Below are positions 38,184 to 61,782 of a stretch of DNA of 64,000 bases, piece by piece. The position numbers were made by a program, and so were the translations under genes. This stretch comes from a virus. The notes under the pieces were generated by a model. The model did no database searches. It had not been told where the DNA came from and was given only the letters and a program-made list of their open reading frames with translations. The stretch is from positions 1 to 64,000 of the IMG/VR virus record IMGVR_UViG_3300027749_000058. The stretch is one strand, 5' to 3'. Position 1 is the first letter of the stretch; each line of letters begins with the position of its first letter.

Positions 38184-38437
38184 ATTAATCCTCCTTGTTT
38201 TTTCCAGTCTTCTTCCATTTGGTTTCTACCTGAATTGTAATTACCGTAATCACCCCACATTTCTAATAAAGATTCGAATGCTTTTTTTAATTTATTGTAT
38301 TTTTCTTCTGATTCTTGTTGTCCTAATTGGTGAGATTGATACATACACTTAATTATTGACCTTTTATCTAAAAAAGAATGGTGTGGAATTGTGTTTTGAT
38401 ATATTTCTTCTAATTGTTTTTCTAATTTTTCATTCAT
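38180..38437 (-). CDS. Hypothetical protein
   Basis: ORF track, operon packing. Confidence 0.5.
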   Translation of the reverse strand: MNEKLEKQLEEIYQNTIPHHSFLDKRSIIKCMYQSHQLGQQESEEKYNKLKKAFESLLEMWGDYGNYNSGRNQMEEDWKKQGGLI

Positions 38438-39522
38438 GGTTCAATCTCCTTTTGCCAAAATGGCTTTGTGTATTTTGGTCTAACTAACTTCCAAATGTAA
38501 TCAGAATAATCTTTATTATCAAACATTCTGAATAATATTGGTCTTAAAAATTCTTCTTGTATCATAACCCATTCAGCAATTTCTTTTTTTGGTGGTAATT
38601 CTCCATAACGAGGATGACCTGATAAGTTCTCAATAAAATTATCGTACAATTTGCCTGCATTCTCTTGAATACTCATTTTAGAATACCTAAGGTCTCTGAT
38701 TGTGGTTTTAACCCACTTATCAAATTCGTCAGGGACTCTATCAAGTAATTCATTAATATCTTTACCATCTTTCAAATACTCCCAAATATCAACATTTGAG
38801 AATCCAGTTAAGATTCTATGGAGACGAACATATTCATTTCCCTTTATTTTCATTCTGAACCCATTTCTAAACCGAATGACATAACCCTCACGGTATTTAT
38901 CGATCATTGATTTAAGGGTCTTATAATCACTAATTCCGTCATATGATTTAACGGTGGGCATATTGGTTTCCTCTCCAATTAACTTTAAAGAATTGTACTC
39001 TAACTCTTTTCCTGATGCGTTACTAATCATTGATAAAACAACTAAAGATTCGTCATCTCCATAATTCACGCATATCATATTTTGAGGATATATTATTTCA
39101 ACTAATGTGGTATATCCTTTTGGTATTGGATGAACATTGTATTTTGAATCTAAAATCTCTTTTCCTTTAATTGCTTGTTCAGAAGTAAAAGATCCTTTGC
39201 TTGATAATATCCATTTTCCTTCATACCAAAATAAAATACCTAATGAACCATCCAGTTTTTCAAATACTTCAAAAGGTTCATTTGGTATTTCTTCTGGTTT
39301 GTGTTCTTCGATATTAAAAAACTTATCAAACCCTTTGGCAATAACATTCCCTTCTTGGTCTAAAATAAGACCACGACATTGTTTGGTGATTTCATCCCAC
39401 TTATTTTCATACTGACAAGTACGAGAATAATTCCAAATAGAAATAGGAAGGGTCGGGTGGTTATTTTTAACCACCAAACCCTTCTCCAAATAATCATTTA
39501 ATATGTTTAAATCAAATTTCAT
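38434..39522 (-). CDS. RNA ligase (T4 Rnl1-like)
   Basis: CRGLI, KFFN, motif I EKLDGSL, EGYV, MKIK. Confidence 0.9.
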   Translation of the reverse strand: MKFDLNILNDYLEKGLVVKNNHPTLPISIWNYSRTCQYENKWDEITKQCRGLILDQEGNVIAKGFDKFFNIEEHKPEEIPNEPFEVFEKLDGSLGILFWYEGKWILSSKGSFTSEQAIKGKEILDSKYNVHPIPKGYTTLVEIIYPQNMICVNYGDDESLVVLSMISNASGKELEYNSLKLIGEETNMPTVKSYDGISDYKTLKSMIDKYREGYVIRFRNGFRMKIKGNEYVRLHRILTGFSNVDIWEYLKDGKDINELLDRVPDEFDKWVKTTIRDLRYSKMSIQENAGKLYDNFIENLSGHPRYGELPPKKEIAEWVMIQEEFLRPILFRMFDNKDYSDYIWKLVRPKYTKPFWQKEIEP

Positions 39523-39734
39523 TATTTTTTAATAACCATATTTGTGTTTGCCATTGGAAGACGTAATACCGGAGTTGATTTTTCAAATTCATCTTTTTGC
39601 ATTACTTCATAAAATCCTTCCAATACTTTTACTGTTGGAACATTTTCATATTTGAATAATATTGTTGAAGTTTCTAAAGAACCTTCGGTTACTTTAACTG
39701 ATTTTGTTGTTGTGTTAAATTGTAATGTTTGCAT
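39522..39734 (-). CDS. Hypothetical protein
   Basis: Coupled to ligase. Confidence 0.55.
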   Translation of the reverse strand: MQTLQFNTTTKSVKVTEGSLETSTILFKYENVPTVKVLEGFYEVMQKDEFEKSTPVLRLPMANTNMVIKK

Positions 39735-39767
39735 GCGATTGTTTTTTTTTTGTTTTATTTTAATTTA

Positions 39768-40175
39768 TTATAAAGAGATTTGAAATCTTTCTTTCATTTG
39801 TTTTATTTTTTCTTCAGGAACTCCATGAGTATTAACTCCTCCATGTCTATTTTCCACAATAATTGTATGAACTCTATACCCATATTTTTTTGCGATTATT
39901 TGATAAAATCTCATTTCCCATTCCTGAGTAAATGTATTAGATATTACAATATTACGAAAAAAAAGTGGTCTAAACAAGCTTGGGTGCATCCAATACTGAA
40001 CTTTTCTTTTGCACCAGTCATGGGCATCCTTAAGTTTTGAACCATCAAATTCATATTTACCATTTTTCATAAAGAATTGGTCAGCCTCAAATATTTGCCA
40101 AGGTTTCCCCAAGGATTTTGCAATTGTGGATTTGCCAGCACCTGGTAATCCTCTAATGATATATAAATTTTTCAT
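39768..40175 (-). CDS. P-loop kinase (AAA_33, polynucleotide-kinase-like)
   Basis: RGLPGAGKST, EADQFF, SNTF, HGVPEEKI..M. Confidence 0.85.
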   Translation of the reverse strand: MKNLYIIRGLPGAGKSTIAKSLGKPWQIFEADQFFMKNGKYEFDGSKLKDAHDWCKRKVQYWMHPSLFRPLFFRNIVISNTFTQEWEMRFYQIIAKKYGYRVHTIIVENRHGGVNTHGVPEEKIKQMKERFQISL

Positions 40176-40177
40176 TA

Positions 40178-40501
40178 TTAATCTAAACTATTTTTTATAT
40201 TCCATATATTAAAAAAATCAAATTCATTATCTTTTTCCCACCCGTGTAATCTCATACTAATTTCGTTTCGGGTTTCCAAGGATAATGCTTTTGCAATAAC
40301 TTCTCTACTTATTGGATGAATCATTTGAACCATACTAATAAAATTACTTCCAGTATTTGGTAAATCAATTATCCTACCAATTTTTTCATCACGATAATCT
40401 TCATCACTAAAAAAAATATTCCAAAATTTAATACAAACCTCCCTGAGTTCGTTAAACGATTCATCTTTGGGAGGTTTGTAAAATAATTCTATCGTATTCA
40501 T
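40178..40501 (-). CDS. Hypothetical protein
   Basis: ORF track. Confidence 0.5.
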   Translation of the reverse strand: MNTIELFYKPPKDESFNELREVCIKFWNIFFSDEDYRDEKIGRIIDLPNTGSNFISMVQMIHPISREVIAKALSLETRNEISMRLHGWEKDNEFDFFNIWNIKNSLD

Positions 40502-40552
40502 TACTTATTTATTGATTGTGAAGACAAATATAACAAATTAACCAACAACTCC

Positions 40553-41197
40553 TTATATATCATCTAAATGATGATCACTTTTTAATGTGTTATATGATAT
40601 GGGTCTTCCTGATAATTTCCTTACAATATCATCAATATCATACGGCATCAAATCATTACCGTCCATACCAACATCCATAGATCTACCAGTCATATACTTT
40701 CCTTCTTTAGGTGTGTGTAGATGACCAAACAAATGGAATACACCTTTCTTCATATCGTGCCAAGAACAGATAGGATAATGACACATAATAAACCTGTGTG
40801 TAGTTTTATTGGTATACTCCAAGTGTAAGTAGTTTTGAACACTCGTAAATAACTTTTGAATGTCTCCTCTATTTCTTTCTATATGCGTATCATGATTACC
40901 GAGCACAAGATGTATTTCCTTACATATAATTCTATTACGAAACTCTTCAATCATTTCAAATCCACCAAAACTCCAATCTCCAAGATTTATTAAAATATCA
41001 TCTTGACCAACCGCCTCATTAATGTTATTCACAATAGCGGCATTCATTTTATCCAAAGTGGCAAAATCTCTAGTTTGTTTTTCTGGTACATCACCATTTG
41101 GTAACCTCCAATTAGTTATTCCTCGGCAGATATTTTTATGTGCATAGTGACAATCTGAAGTCAACCATACTTTTCTATCGTTATTAATCTTTATCAT
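40553..41197 (-). CDS. Calcineurin-like metallophosphoesterase
   Basis: SDCHYAH, LGD, LGNHD, CHYP, GHLH. Confidence 0.9.
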   Translation of the reverse strand: MIKINNDRKVWLTSDCHYAHKNICRGITNWRLPNGDVPEKQTRDFATLDKMNAAIVNNINEAVGQDDILINLGDWSFGGFEMIEEFRNRIICKEIHLVLGNHDTHIERNRGDIQKLFTSVQNYLHLEYTNKTTHRFIMCHYPICSWHDMKKGVFHLFGHLHTPKEGKYMTGRSMDVGMDGNDLMPYDIDDIVRKLSGRPISYNTLKSDHHLDDI

Positions 41198-41213
41198 AAA
41201 GCAAAGATAAGAA

Positions 41214-53884: not shown

Positions 53885-53992
53885 TTAAAACAATTAAATC
53901 CCTTTTATAGGGATTTTTTATTTGTATTTATCAATAAAACCCTTATCTTTGTGGAAGAAATTACTCACCTATAATCTAAAGGTGGGGAATAC

Positions 53993-54092
53993 GGTTCGGT
54001 AGCTCAGCTGGATAGTAGCGACAGCCTTCTTGGTCTATATTTTAGTATTACCAAGAAGCTGTAGGTCATTGGTTCGAATCCAATCCGGATCA
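53993..54092 (+). tRNA. trnR: tRNA-Arg(TCT) with 25-nt anticodon-loop insertion (54031-54055)
   Basis: ggttcgg/ccggatc; acagc-ctTCT-[insert]-aa-gctgt; T loop ttcgaat. Confidence 0.8.
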
Positions 54093-55179: not shown

Positions 55180-55252
55180 GGTGCTCAAGCTAACTTGGTA
55201 GAAGCGAAAGACTGAAAATCTTTAGGACTCGGCTCGGAACCGAGGAGTACCA
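55180..55252 (+). tRNA. trnF: tRNA-Phe(GAA), second copy, atypical T loop
   Basis: ggtgctc/gagtacc; aaaga-ctGAAaa-tcttt; T loop ctcggaa. Confidence 0.8.
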
Positions 55253-55327
55253 CGGAGTCCCGAAATAACGGGAAACCCCCACTCCCATATGGCAGCCAGT
55301 CCGTTAACCTGGTGAAGTGGGGTAGGA

Positions 55328-55429
55328 TGTTAAGTAGTGGATATGTAAGCGGGCTCAAGCTCGGTAAGTCAAAAAGGTTATGACGCTCTTTACGAGACCA
55401 CGTTGTCGGTTCGAGTCCGACCTTAACAA
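55328..55429 (+). ncRNA. tRNA-like RNA with acceptor stem and T arm but no canonical anticodon arm
   Basis: tgttaag/cttaaca; gtcgg-ttcgagt-ccgac. Confidence 0.55.
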
Positions 55430-55502
55430 CAAAGACATCAACGGAGTATATTCACACTTAGGAAACTATGTAATGGTCAAAATTCTAATGATGTCTTTAA
55501 AT

Positions 55503-55584
55503 AGTCAGGTGGCGGAATGTTAGACGCAATAAGGTTGTTCCTACCCGAAAAGGAGCTTACAGGTTCGAATCCTTGTCCTGATTA
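55503..55584 (+). ncRNA. tRNA-Leu-like RNA with aberrant anticodon arm
   Basis: agtcagg/cctgatt; Leu-type D arm gcggaatgttagacgc; T loop ttcgaat. Confidence 0.55.
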
Positions 55585-55591
55585 CAAAATT

Positions 55592-57981: not shown

Positions 57982-58055
57982 GGTGTTTGAAGCATTAAGG
58001 TGATGCACTAGTTTGTGGAGCTAGAAAAGACGGGTCGGTACCGTCCTTACACCCA
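57982..58055 (+). tRNA. trnH: tRNA-His(GTG) with G-1, imperfect acceptor stem and T loop
   Basis: ctagt-ttGTGga-gctag; gacgg-gtcggta-ccgtc. Confidence 0.75.
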
Positions 58056-58089
58056 TATTTTTTTTCTTAGTATCATACTATTTATATGT

Positions 58090-58551
58090 ATGGAAAAAAA
58101 AGTAACTCTAACCAAAGAACAATTATTCAAGGTGATGAACTTGAATGAGGCTGAAAATAAAAAAGAAAAAAATGAAACATCTGATGTTGTTGATATGATT
58201 GCAACATTACTTCATTCAAGAAGCCAAACTCATATTTTTCATTGGCAAACAAAATCACAATCATCATTTGCTGAACATATGGCATTAGGAACTTATTATG
58301 ATGAAATTGTTGGACTAATTGATGGTATTGTTGAAAGTTATCAAGGAAAATATGAAATAATTACAGGATACAAAACAGTTGAAATGGTTGATTACAAATC
58401 AACAGAACAATTAATAAGTTACTTTAGAGAATTAGATAGCAATATTGAAAAAAATAGAAAGGGGATTAAAGAATCTTATATTCAAAATCAAATTGACGGA
58501 CTTCAAGAGTTAATTTTTTCTACATTATATAAATTAAGATTCTTGAAATAA
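58090..58551 (+). CDS. Ferritin/Dps-like four-helix protein (DUF5856-like) with LTKEQL leader
   Basis: HIFHWQT...FAEHMALGTYYD...IDGIVESYQG...TLYKL; ATG at 58090. Confidence 0.7.
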   Translation: MEKKVTLTKEQLFKVMNLNEAENKKEKNETSDVVDMIATLLHSRSQTHIFHWQTKSQSSFAEHMALGTYYDEIVGLIDGIVESYQGKYEIITGYKTVEMVDYKSTEQLISYFRELDSNIEKNRKGIKESYIQNQIDGLQELIFSTLYKLRFLK

Positions 58552-59258: not shown

Positions 59259-60473
59259 TTATTTTAATAAGTTTTTAATTCTTTCTATATTTTCATCAAT
59301 TTTTTTACTACTCATACTATTTTTATTAAAGAAATTTTTAAGTTTAGGTTCTCCTCCCTTAGTCATTGATGGTATTTTATCATTTATTTTTTTACCTAAC
59401 CCAAGTATTTTTTTACCTATCCATGGGTAAAATGGATCATAATATTCTGTTTCTTTTTTATCCTTATCTTTGTCCTTATCTTTATCATCATCTTTCTTTT
59501 TATTTATATTATTAGTTGAAATTTCTTTATCTAAAATTATAGGTAAATTTAATTTAGTCCATGATTTATCGTATAATGAAACTGTTACATCAGAAGATGT
59601 TTTTCCTAAAATATCTCCCTTAAATATTTTTTGACCATCTCTAACTTCAGGGTTAGATATACCACAAAATAATAAATAATAAGTCTTATCTTCAATAGAA
59701 TGTTGAATTGTTATTTGATTAGGACAACGACCTTCAGAATGATAGTTATTAATTACACCATTAGTTGGTGATTTTATCTTAGTATTCGTACTACTTGGGA
59801 TAATAATTGAAGTATTATTACTTGAAATTCTATCACCTAATTTTGAATATATTTTTTCTTCTTTTATTCCGAGTTGTGATGCGGTATTTTGCAATGCTTT
59901 AACTGTTGCATCATTATAGTCTATATGACTAGTTCCGAATTGGTCATCGTTTGGTTGTTGTGTTGTTCCGGATTGTGTTGTTCCAGATTGTGGACTAGTT
60001 GCGACTGAGTTTCCTCCATTTGTGTTAGATACGTGAACATGATTATCATGACCTTTAAATCCAAACGTTAAAACAGCTTTAGGATTTCCTGTTTCTGAAT
60101 TTTTTACATATCCCATTTTAACCAATGCATTTACAAATTGGTCTGCATCTGATCTATTTGCGAGACTAACATTTTTACCATTAATCATTGCAATATCAAC
60201 TGCATTTCCACTTGGATGTCTTGAAGGAAGACTTTCATGACCTGATTGAGCTGTAGTAATACTAACATTAACATTCGCAGCTTTAGCTGCGTCTTGGACA
60301 TCTTTTAAAAGTTGTTGATTAATATTATCTCTTGATGGATAACTATTTGCTCCGTCTCTAAAATCTACATTGGGACCAGGGTCAATAGCTTCTGTTGCCA
60401 AGTCTTTTTTAAAATCTCTTTTTAAATCTGAAAGAATATCGTAAGTCTCATTAATTTTTTTAATTTCAATCAT
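59259..60473 (-). CDS. Peptidoglycan peptidase: M15-like domain plus degenerate M23-like domain
   Basis: SRHPSGNAVDI...HDNHVHVS; IKSPTNGVI...ITIQH...VRDGQKIFKGDILG lacking HxH. Confidence 0.65.
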   Translation of the reverse strand: MIEIKKINETYDILSDLKRDFKKDLATEAIDPGPNVDFRDGANSYPSRDNINQQLLKDVQDAAKAANVNVSITTAQSGHESLPSRHPSGNAVDIAMINGKNVSLANRSDADQFVNALVKMGYVKNSETGNPKAVLTFGFKGHDNHVHVSNTNGGNSVATSPQSGTTQSGTTQQPNDDQFGTSHIDYNDATVKALQNTASQLGIKEEKIYSKLGDRISSNNTSIIIPSSTNTKIKSPTNGVINNYHSEGRCPNQITIQHSIEDKTYYLLFCGISNPEVRDGQKIFKGDILGKTSSDVTVSLYDKSWTKLNLPIILDKEISTNNINKKKDDDKDKDKDKDKKETEYYDPFYPWIGKKILGLGKKINDKIPSMTKGGEPKLKNFFNKNSMSSKKIDENIERIKNLLK

Positions 60474-61004: not shown

Positions 61005-61193
61005 TTAAGACTTTTTATTTTCCTCCATCTCAATTCTGTTTTTTAAATCTAATTCAATAATTTTATTTTTCCACTCTTTCCAAATCTCAAAATCTTGTAA
61101 ATTTTGAATTGTCTTCTCATGTAGTAAAACAAATCCCTCAGGAGCAACTCCTGAATATCTATTCTTAACTATCTCATTTATTGATATCTTCAT
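61005..61193 (-). CDS. Hypothetical protein
   Basis: ORF track. Confidence 0.45.
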   Translation of the reverse strand: MKISINEIVKNRYSGVAPEGFVLLHEKTIQNLQDFEIWKEWKNKIIELDLKNRIEMEENKKS

Positions 61194-61782
61194 TTAATTT
61201 TTTGATTATTTTATCTTTTAACCCTGTTTGTTTTAATCCTTCTCCACTCTTAGTTAAAAAGAAATTGTCAACTGGTTTTAATCCACCTTGTCTTAAATCC
61301 AAATCGTCAATTGCGATGAATTCAGTTACATTATAATCCTTAACAAATTTATCAACCTCAAAAAATCGATTTCTTTCTAAATCAAAAGATGATTTTAAAT
61401 TTTCGGTTACAAATTTAGGTGAACGGATTACACCATTTTCCTTAAAAATAGTGTCTAATTGTGATAAATCCCAATGTAATTTCCAATCTGAACTAAGAAC
61501 GATGACCGCTTCAGTTTTCTCTAATATTTCGTTAAAAACTTTAACACATCCTTTATCAAATCCGTACGGTACTCTTAATTCTTTCGCCCAATCATTGTTT
61601 TGACTAAATTTATTTCGGTTTCCCATAAATTGTTTATCGGTAGCCAATACACCATCTATGTCTAAAAATATTACTTTCATATTTGTTAATTTTTGTATAT
61701 GTTCACTAATAGTAAGTTCTTCACATTTCCAACACCATTCATTATCTTGTGTGTCCCAAATATGTCTATCGCATTTTGCCAT
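61174..61782 (-). CDS. HAD-superfamily phosphatase (Swiss-Army-knife RNA-repair-like); domain starts at 61680
   Basis: FLDIDGVL, IVLSSDWK, AIDDL, EGL. Confidence 0.8.
   Translation of the reverse strand: MAKCDRHIWDTQDNEWCWKCEELTISEHIQKLTNMKVIFLDIDGVLATDKQFMGNRNKFSQNNDWAKELRVPYGFDKGCVKVFNEILEKTEAVIVLSSDWKLHWDLSQLDTIFKENGVIRSPKFVTENLKSSFDLERNRFFEVDKFVKDYNVTEFIAIDDLDLRQGGLKPVDNFFLTKSGEGLKQTGLKDKIIKKLNEDINK

Follow-up and report, generated by a model that had tools for sequence, protein, structure and literature searches.

Introduction

To our knowledge, tRNA introns that are spliced by enzymes are regarded as an archaeal and eukaryal trait, bacteria being known only for the self-splicing ones. 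In the bulge-helix-bulge (BHB) introns, each of the two junctions lies in a 3-nt bulge, with a helix of 4 bp between the bulges, and the canonical site of insertion is 37/38. Interruptions of another kind are the intervening sequences (IVS) of bacterial 23S rRNA, extra hairpins that RNase III excises by cleaving both sides of the stem. The Rnl1 family of RNA ligases is specialized in sealing broken anticodon loops, and we know of no role in which it has so far been seen other than repair against anticodon nucleases. RNase III cleaves double-helical RNA on both strands, and its products have 2-nt 3' overhangs, a phosphate at the 5' end and a hydroxyl at the 3' end; its typical substrates in Escherichia coli span about two helical turns, a 34-nt hairpin is a minimal substrate, and coaxially stacked, quasi-continuous helices are also accepted (PMC1540722). 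In vitro, T4 Rnl1 can ligate the two halves of a tRNA, and in yeast cells it can take over from the tRNA splicing ligase (PMC1920235). As for phages, the genomes of Lak megaphages contain 'enigmatic' tRNA introns that are highly conserved between genomes and for which a mechanism was not given (Devoto et al., 2019; PMC6784885); in searches of the literature for the splicing of phage tRNA introns by RNase III or Rnl1, we found nothing beyond that study and no proposal of either enzyme.

Here, we analyse an interrupted tRNA-Arg(UCU) gene located in the first 64 kb (hereinafter, the window) of a 110,935-bp IMG/VR viral contig with a G+C content of 30%. The contig is estimated to be 37% complete, which, given its length, implies a large phage.

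Results

An interrupted tRNA-Arg(UCU) gene

The gene and its parts are as follows.

53993..54092, + strand: tRNA-Arg(UCU) gene with insert, 100 nt, no encoded CCA (Rfam RF00005, 45.3 bits; ARAGORN -i call)
53993..54030, + strand: 5' exon, tRNA positions 1-36, the last 3 nt being the anticodon U34 C35 U36 at 54028-54030 (alignment to the intact genes L005 and L006)
54031..54055, + strand: hairpin insert, putative mini-intron of 25 nt at the U36/A37 boundary (sequence, ARAGORN and fold)
54056..54092, + strand: 3' exon, tRNA positions 37-73 (sequence and alignment to L005 and L006)

The original prediction, read from the bare sequence, was that of a tRNA-Arg(UCU) with a 25-nt insert after the anticodon, and two dedicated tools agree with it. 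The Rfam tRNA model scores 45.3 bits on 53993-54092, against a gathering score of 29, which identifies the gene as a tRNA, and ARAGORN, once introns are allowed, calls tRNA-Arg(tct) with i(39,25), that is, a 25-nt intron (tggtc...accaag) immediately 3' of the anticodon; at default settings, ARAGORN makes no call for this gene. The tRNA body consists of a 7-bp acceptor stem (GGTTCGG/CCGGATC), a T-arm (ATTGG/TTCGAAT/CCAAT), a variable loop of 5 nt and an anticodon stem (ACAGC/GCTGT) formed by 54021-25 and 54058-62, with C32 U33 U34 C35 U36 of the loop at 54026-30 and A37 A38 at 54056-57. Excision of 54031-54055 restores, as had been claimed, the loop CUUCUAA, which is also the loop of the uninterrupted tRNA-Arg(UCU) genes L005 and L006 (the T-arm being common to all); the CTTCTAA of these two genes fixes the insertion point uniquely as U36/A37. 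The identity of the tRNA follows from UCU in a 7-nt loop, U33, A37 and a D-loop of the Arg type (AGCUGGAUA, with A20); the intact genes L005 and L006 have matching D-loops and T-arms. Within the 64-kb window the insert is present in a single copy, with no sign of its being a repeated or mobile element.

Two familiar classes of intron can be set aside, in line with the original reading. A group I intron is rejected because the 25 nt of the insert compare with a core (P3-P9) of ~200 nt or more, and Rfam finds no match besides the tRNA itself. A BHB intron of the archaeal/eukaryal type is rejected because the insertion site is 36/37 rather than 37/38 and both junctions lie inside a continuous helix, the sole bulge of which is C32.

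Transcription context

Three signals bear on the expression of the locus.

53896..53916, + strand: intrinsic terminator of the gene upstream of tRNA-Arg, giving tRNA-Arg its own transcription unit
53943..53951, + strand: promoter-like motif TTATCTTTG, 42 nt upstream of tRNA-Arg(UCU)
41202..41210, - strand: further occurrence of TTATCTTTG, immediately upstream of the RNA-repair operon described below

The promoter that had been proposed for tRNA-Arg at this place is supported by the distribution of the motif: the window contains 13 copies where 1.96 would be expected, of which 12 are on the + strand and several are located just upstream of genes. We take TTATCTTTG to be the Bacteroidota-type TAnnTTTG promoter motif.

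Conservation of the insert in a sister phage

A sister phage of 165.5 kb (L003/G001, IMGVR_UViG_3300032239_001501) is syntenic with the window, the coding DNA of the two being 78-92% (about 82%) identical, and the DNA that flanks its tRNA-Arg gene cannot be aligned with that of the window. The tRNA-Arg plus insert is identical at 99 of 100 positions, with no substitution in the insert; the two phages differ here only by a substitution in the T-loop and by an additional T in the terminal loop of the insert. The chance of 25 bases remaining unchanged at ~82% identity is ~0.007; the adjacent working tRNAs (Thr and Trp) are 97% identical between the two phages. The comparison of orthologues that had been suggested as a check thus finds the insert kept in a diverged sister, and compensatory changes are found across ~12 lineages (see below).

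These data bear directly on the reading in which the tRNA was recently inactivated by a neutral or harmful insertion that is now decaying, or in which the insert is an artefact of assembly. Such an origin would agree with the gene being missed by default tRNA finders and with the extra T in its D-arm (GATAGTAGC), but the same D-arm variant is found in the intact tRNA-Arg(UCU) genes of huge phages (L007 and L323). Furthermore, the insert shows 0 substitutions in an independent assembly of a diverged phage, its design recurs with compensatory changes in about 12 lineages, and inserts are present in the cultured, finished genomes of Aeh1, PX29 and Ah1. Judging from these alignments, artefact and decay are largely excluded, and we regard this explanation as highly improbable.

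Recurrence of the hairpin in other lineages

Pattern scans revealed sequence-unrelated hairpins of 25-31 nt at exactly 36/37 of bacterial-type tRNA-Arg(UCU) genes in about 12 lineages. The family patterns required CTTCT and the common T-loop, and six of the lineages came from patterns that placed no 3'-side requirement on the insert. The carriers are the following.

Viral carriers, 25-31-nt insert at 36/37: L008, L129, L132, L133/134/137/140/141, L136, L138, L139, L144
Metagenome-contig carriers, 25-31-nt insert at 36/37: L022, L040, L106
Bacterial-genome carrier, insert at 36/37: L249

The insert of the window belongs to a recurrent family, which the original prediction missed. The viral carriers include the cultured T4-like Aeromonas phages Aeh1, Ah1 and PX29, all with finished genomes. 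The Aeh1 copy (NC_005260.1, 114904-115008; Aeh1t023) is 105 nt long and is annotated as 'tRNA-Glu, UUC anticodon', and that of PX29 as 'tRNA-Lys', in GenBank/RefSeq; the interrupted gene lies next to gene 57B. The inserts of Ah1 and Aeh1 are identical at 27 of 28 positions, whereas the exons are only ~70% identical, a likeness that could reflect either transfer of the insert between genes or a strong constraint on its sequence.

The one cellular carrier is a 7.4-Mb long-contig Chitinophagaceae metagenome-assembled genome (G062; CBDFGC01), in which the interrupted copy is located among ordinary metabolic genes. Searches with the hairpin pattern gave no match in 100 relatives of G062 or in a 400-genome sample of its phylum, and the design is, on the evidence of these genome sequences, rare in cells. 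Several classes of matches were not retained as members, namely, L002 and L004, which are chance matches within coding DNA; most of the 120 metagenome matches, which have their introns at the canonical 37/38 site and seem to be of archaeal or eukaryal origin; and, among the genome-contig matches listed, 118 of 120 that arose by chance and one archaeal tRNA, leaving a single bacterial-type member (L249).

Fold of the anticodon arm and register of the junctions

The structure common to the family extends the anticodon arm into the insert.

54021..54062, + strand: extended anticodon arm, consisting of the 5-bp anticodon stem, bulged C32, U33-A38, U34-A37, C35-G(-1), U36-A(-2) and the insert helix (predicted from the fold and the register statistics of 12 lineages)

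In the window, the precursor folds into a cloverleaf with a lengthened anticodon arm. In the minimum-energy structure of this arm, the 5-bp anticodon stem and the bulged C32 are followed by 8 bp (UUCUUGGU/ACCAAGAA) and, beyond a small internal loop, by another 4 bp that are capped by a loop of 4 nt; this amounts to 17 predicted base pairs, and coaxial stacking on the D stem is possible. The fold has an energy of -17.6 kcal/mol (z = -5.7 relative to shuffled sequences; 0 of 200 shuffles equally good). The 9-bp pairing (cttcttggt/accaagaag) that was initially noticed is genuine and appears in this fold in the form just described, and the early statement that the locus lacks a bulge-helix-bulge holds, with both junctions in an unbroken helix and C32 as the one bulge.

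In every member of the family, C32 is bulged and the pairs U33-A38, U34-A37, C35-G(-1) and U36-A(-2) are formed; the 3' end of the insert is AG in all lineages, pairing with C35 and U36. Past the junction, the hairpin continues for ~10-12 helix positions (counting base pairs as well as small internal mismatches) and is closed by a loop of 3-6 nt, which is larger in L022. When the first four pairs between insert positions +k and -(k+2) were counted, without gaps, in the 12 lineages (48 cells), they were present in 42 of the 48, compared with 14-27 of 48 at other offsets; in the six lineages found without any 3'-side condition, 20 of 24 cells hold the register pairs. The pair adjacent to the junction covaries, being U-A in five lineages, C-G in six and C.A in one.

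In 12 of 12 lineages, the junctions are on opposite strands, with an offset that leaves C35-U36 as a 2-nt 3' overhang. The register of +k with -(k+2) means that the two junctions are 2 nt apart with a 3' overhang, which is the geometry of RNase III products: the positions fall on opposite strands, are staggered by 2 nt in the 3' direction and lie within what is, according to the folds, a double helix. This fit to RNase III, overlooked by the original prediction, may render end healing unnecessary, since the 5'-phosphate and 3'-OH ends left by RNase III would be direct substrates of Rnl1.

Neighbouring and related RNA elements

The surroundings of the gene contain further structured elements. 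Just after tRNA-Phe, a 75-nt stretch (55250-55324) is 98.7% identical to L003:5907-5981, with surroundings that are ~80% identical or unalignable; it contains the nested stems GGAGT/ACTCC, CCCG/CGGG and CCCCACT/AGTGGGG and may be a small structured RNA. It is followed by a tRNA-like element (55328-55430) with a good acceptor stem and a T-arm (GTCGG TTCGAGT CCGAC) and without a normal D-arm or anticodon arm; its Rfam tRNA score of 26 bits is below the threshold, and ARAGORN calls it, as Pro(cgg) with a 21-nt intron, at relaxed settings only. A Leu-type tRNA-like element (55505-55585) has an acceptor AGTCAGG, a D-arm GCGGAAT..AGACGC and a T-arm, with an aberrant middle, and is not called by the tools; it measures 81 nt in the window versus 171 nt in L003:5733-5903(-), a difference of ~100 extra bases. 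Finally, a weak candidate for tRNA-His(GUG) at 57983-58054 (Rfam, 32.4 bits) has two U.U mismatches in the acceptor and overlaps the start of the ORF at 58015-58551.

Other interrupted or enlarged tRNA genes were encountered elsewhere. A second class of interrupted tRNA-Arg(UCU), in the viral contigs L270, L304, L322 and L346, is interrupted between C35 and U36 by 43-46 nt, with a mini T-arm (AGGTTCAATTCCT) in some of the inserts; its junctions lie in an internal loop and not in a continuous helix, so that the RNase III geometry is inapplicable to it. In G063, a relative of G062 whose genome has Rnl1, the tRNA-Arg(UCU) (L418:1501-2144) has an insert of ~570 nt; with the junctions placed as CTT\|C...G\|CTAA, U is the last base of the 5' exon and G that of the insert, as in group I introns, and although Rfam gives no match, this insert may be of that kind. 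Runs of tRNA-like genes with 33-49-nt inserts that are not of the 36/37 class occur in G007 (59675-60204, four in a row) and in Aeh1 (G009; 96384-96772, two). A further tRNA-like family of ~118 nt, present in many IMG/VR contigs (for instance, L292, L303, L315, L318 and L331), is distinguished by a hairpin added after the D-arm and by the conserved motif ACAGCAA; because complete genomes carry it without Rnl1, its members are probably extra-arm tRNAs rather than intron-bearing ones.

RNA-repair genes and the link to Rnl1

Four genes of the window encode proteins of types associated with the healing and sealing of RNA ends.

38434..39522, - strand: Rnl1-family RNA ligase, proposed sealing enzyme (PF09511, 73.6 bits; T4 Rnl1 structure 2C5U, E 6e-12)
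39768..40175, - strand: P-loop kinase (AAA_33), possible 5' end-healing enzyme, same operon as Rnl1
40553..41197, - strand: calcineurin-like metallophosphoesterase, possible 3' end-healing enzyme, same operon as Rnl1
61174..61782, - strand: HAD_SAK_2 phosphatase-type protein, with the RNA-repair 'Swiss Army Knife' HAD domain (PF18143, 76.5 bits)

The presence of an Rnl1 ligase, a kinase and phosphatases had been announced from the sequence, and the domains PF09511, AAA_33, Metallophos and HAD_SAK_2 were all found. The first three constitute a T4-type heal-and-seal set in one operon (38434-41197), in which the phosphoesterase is a metallophosphoesterase and not the HAD type of T4, and the C-terminal domain of the ligase yields no sequence alignment to T4 Rnl1.

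PF09511 is encoded by 4 of 4 carrier phages that are at least 90% complete versus 1 of 19 tRNA-bearing controls of at least 90% completeness (Fisher p ~0.0006), an association that is partly phylogenetic, given that three of these four carriers are T4-like Aeromonas phages related to one another, and rnlA is common among such phages anyway. The controls were 48 other tRNA-bearing viral records, with PF09511 in 4 of the 48. The domain is also present in the window and in the sister phage (G001); the ligase was not found in G007, which is 67% complete and carries the insert, and PF09511 is otherwise absent only from fragments. The bacterium G062 has Rnl1, in a setting where PF09511 occurs in 3 of 101 related bacteria and in 0 of 14 reference genomes, and its ligase is 42% identical to that of the window over the full length; neither a kinase nor a phosphatase was found beside it. 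Rnl1 was rejected as a sufficient predictor of the hairpin because, of the three bacteria with Rnl1, G063 and G104 lack the hairpin.

As regards nucleases, the EndA/Sen endonuclease (PF01974) was found in 0 of 7 carrier records by a search that was positive in four control archaea, RtcB was found in none of the carriers, and no phage RNase III was found in the contig of the window or in six carrier records. Given this lack of EndA, RtcB and phage RNase III in the carriers, the nuclease would be derived from the host.

The repair operon also lends itself to the main alternative, which we hold to be rather unlikely and in which the insert is a spliced mini-intron removed by nucleases other than RNase III, for example, by RNase P together with RNase Z/BN reading the hairpin as a minihelix resembling an acceptor and T-arm. 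In a variant of this scheme, cyclic-phosphate ends left by another enzyme would be healed by the kinase (39768-40175) and the phosphoesterase (40553-41197) before sealing by Rnl1. The full heal-and-seal set in one operon of the window would suit this alternative, as would the length of the hairpin (10-12 positions), which matches the 12-bp stack of acceptor and T stems, the mini T-arms in other phage tRNA inserts (43-46 nt, 35/36; L270, L304, L322 and L346), and the ability of T4 Pnkp and Rnl1 to act on, and splice, tRNA halves with cyclic-phosphate ends (PMC1920235). Left unexplained by it, however, are the AG ends paired to C35 and U36 in every insert, and the unbroken helix across both junctions with its 2-nt register. 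In addition, RNase Z cuts one nucleotide after the last pair, so that its cut would fall 1 nt, not 2, past that pair, and the Rnl1 gene of G062 has no adjacent kinase or phosphatase.

Likely requirement for the tRNA

AGA accounts for 73% of the arginine codons in the window phage, or 24.4 per 1000 codons. No second arginine tRNA was found in the contig of the window, which, being 37% complete, could belong to a phage that has another. Whole-genome scans found none in Aeh1 (26 tRNA calls), in G006 (11), a complete genome with terminal repeats, in G007 (25) or in G001 (7). Likewise, no second tRNA-Arg(UCU) was found in G062, four relatives of which have intact genes. A cell that reads AGA needs tRNA-Arg(UCU), and only the interrupted copy was found in G062, which argues for removal of the insert. 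We consider it probable, from the gene contents and alignments described here, that excision of the insert takes place and yields a functional tRNA.

The same observations weigh on the proposal that the hairpin is retained and that the product is a stable, non-decoding look-alike of a tRNA with its anticodon enclosed in a helix. Such an RNA could have a regulatory function or could decoy or inhibit a host factor, for instance a synthetase, a modification enzyme or an anticodon nuclease. Non-decoding tRNA-like RNAs do occur in phage tRNA clusters, two of them in the window (55328-55430 and 55505-55585); the hairpin is under selection, as would be expected of a structural RNA too; and the RNA-repair genes suggest that these phages face tRNA-cutting defences. 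A decoy would, however, have no need for U33, UCU, A37 and A38 to give a perfect 7-nt loop upon excision, as they do in all members, and an anticodon that is buried in a helix would attract anticodon nucleases poorly. Moreover, carrier phages with 11-26 tRNAs have no other arginine tRNA, and the interrupted gene is the sole tRNA-Arg(UCU) found in the bacterium G062. We therefore judge a decoy to be distinctly unlikely.

Discussion

A possible route of maturation

The preferred reading is a mini-intron for which RNase III is the excising and Rnl1 the sealing enzyme. Before processing, the anticodon stem would be prolonged by an unbroken helix made up of the anticodon loop and the insert, and host RNase III would cut both strands, with a 2-nt stagger, at U36|+1 and -1|A37. 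The hairpin would thereby be released, leaving tRNA halves that end in 3'-OH and 5'-phosphate and need no healing step, and the phage Rnl1 (38434-39522) would rejoin them into a 76-nt tRNA-Arg(UCU) with the loop CUUCUAA. We assign this pair of roles, to RNase III and to Rnl1, a chance that is close to even.

Several lines of evidence are consistent with this route: the insert is free of substitutions in the sister phage L003, unrelated hairpins occupy the same site in about 12 lineages, and the junction register is shared and accompanied by covariation. AGA is the main arginine codon of the window phage, and the larger carriers have a sole detected arginine tRNA or tRNA-Arg(UCU); Rnl1 co-occurs with the hairpin, including in G062, and EndA, RtcB and phage RNase III were not found in the carriers. 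On the other side, the helix is short, contains the bulged C32 and, in the window, an internal loop 4 bp from the junction, so that the ~two turns of a typical substrate would require stacking on the D stem. The link to Rnl1 is weakened by the kinship of three of the four complete carriers, by the two of three Rnl1-positive bacteria that have no hairpin and by G007, which has the insert and in which the ligase was not found. The window also encodes a kinase and phosphoesterases, and the argument from a sole arginine tRNA is tempered by the 37% completeness of the window contig, where a second one is possible. The original prediction had offered a protein-spliced mini-intron or a translation-dead mimic or decoy; of these, the mini-intron is favoured by the conservation and recurrence of the insert, the sole tRNA and Rnl1, and the decoy has become the less favoured.

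More generally, and with greater reserve, the data hint at protein-only splicing of tRNA in bacteria and phages, whereby a one-turn hairpin creates an RNase III site and a ligase of the Rnl1 family reseals the RNA, a generalization to which we would give somewhat less than even chances. If true, a hairpin intron that is cut by RNase III and sealed by Rnl1 would represent a third route to tRNA splicing, and RNA ligase 1 would gain a housekeeping role as a splicing ligase. The most-used arginine tRNA of the phage would then depend on a phage gene for its maturation, and the 'enigmatic' phage tRNA introns reported in 2019 would be explained. In practice, standard finders miss or misname interrupted tRNA genes, so that phage tRNA sets, and arguments about codon usage built on them, are biased.

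Comparison with known systems

The Lak introns resemble the insert of the window in being short, non-self-splicing inserts in the anticodon loops of phage tRNAs that are conserved among relatives, a likeness in kind and not one of homology. They differ in the tRNAs concerned, which are those for Tyr, Phe, Gly and Thr, and share neither sequence nor size with the inserts described here; the published example measures 93 nt, and one insert may itself resemble a tRNA (PMC6784885). A 25-31-nt hairpin at 36/37 of tRNA-Arg(UCU), the RNase III geometry and the link to a ligase do not figure in that paper (PMC6784885).

Archaeal and eukaryal introns are, like the insert described here, small, located next to the anticodon and paired with it, and they are removed by proteins, as is proposed for the window. 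However, they are found at 37/38, with 3-nt bulges around a 4-bp helix, and are processed by EndA/Sen with RtcB or Trl1; the ends predicted here are 5'-P/3'-OH, as opposed to the cyclic phosphate and 5'-OH of archaeal and eukaryal splicing. Bacterial group I introns, such as those of tRNA-Leu(UAA) and tRNA-Arg(CCU), also interrupt anticodon loops, but 25 nt cannot hold the ribozyme core. With the IVS of 23S rRNA, the insert shares the form of a hairpin in a stable RNA and the proposed excision by RNase III. The rRNA fragments, however, stay unjoined and the ribosome works in pieces, whereas a tRNA with a break in its anticodon loop has to be religated, which is where Rnl1 would be needed. The restriction-repair system of T4 (PrrC, Pnkp and Rnl1) parallels the window in the family of the ligase and in the adjacent coding of a kinase and a phosphoesterase; yet, the break in T4 is damage inflicted by a host defence, whereas that in the window would be a programmed step of tRNA maturation.
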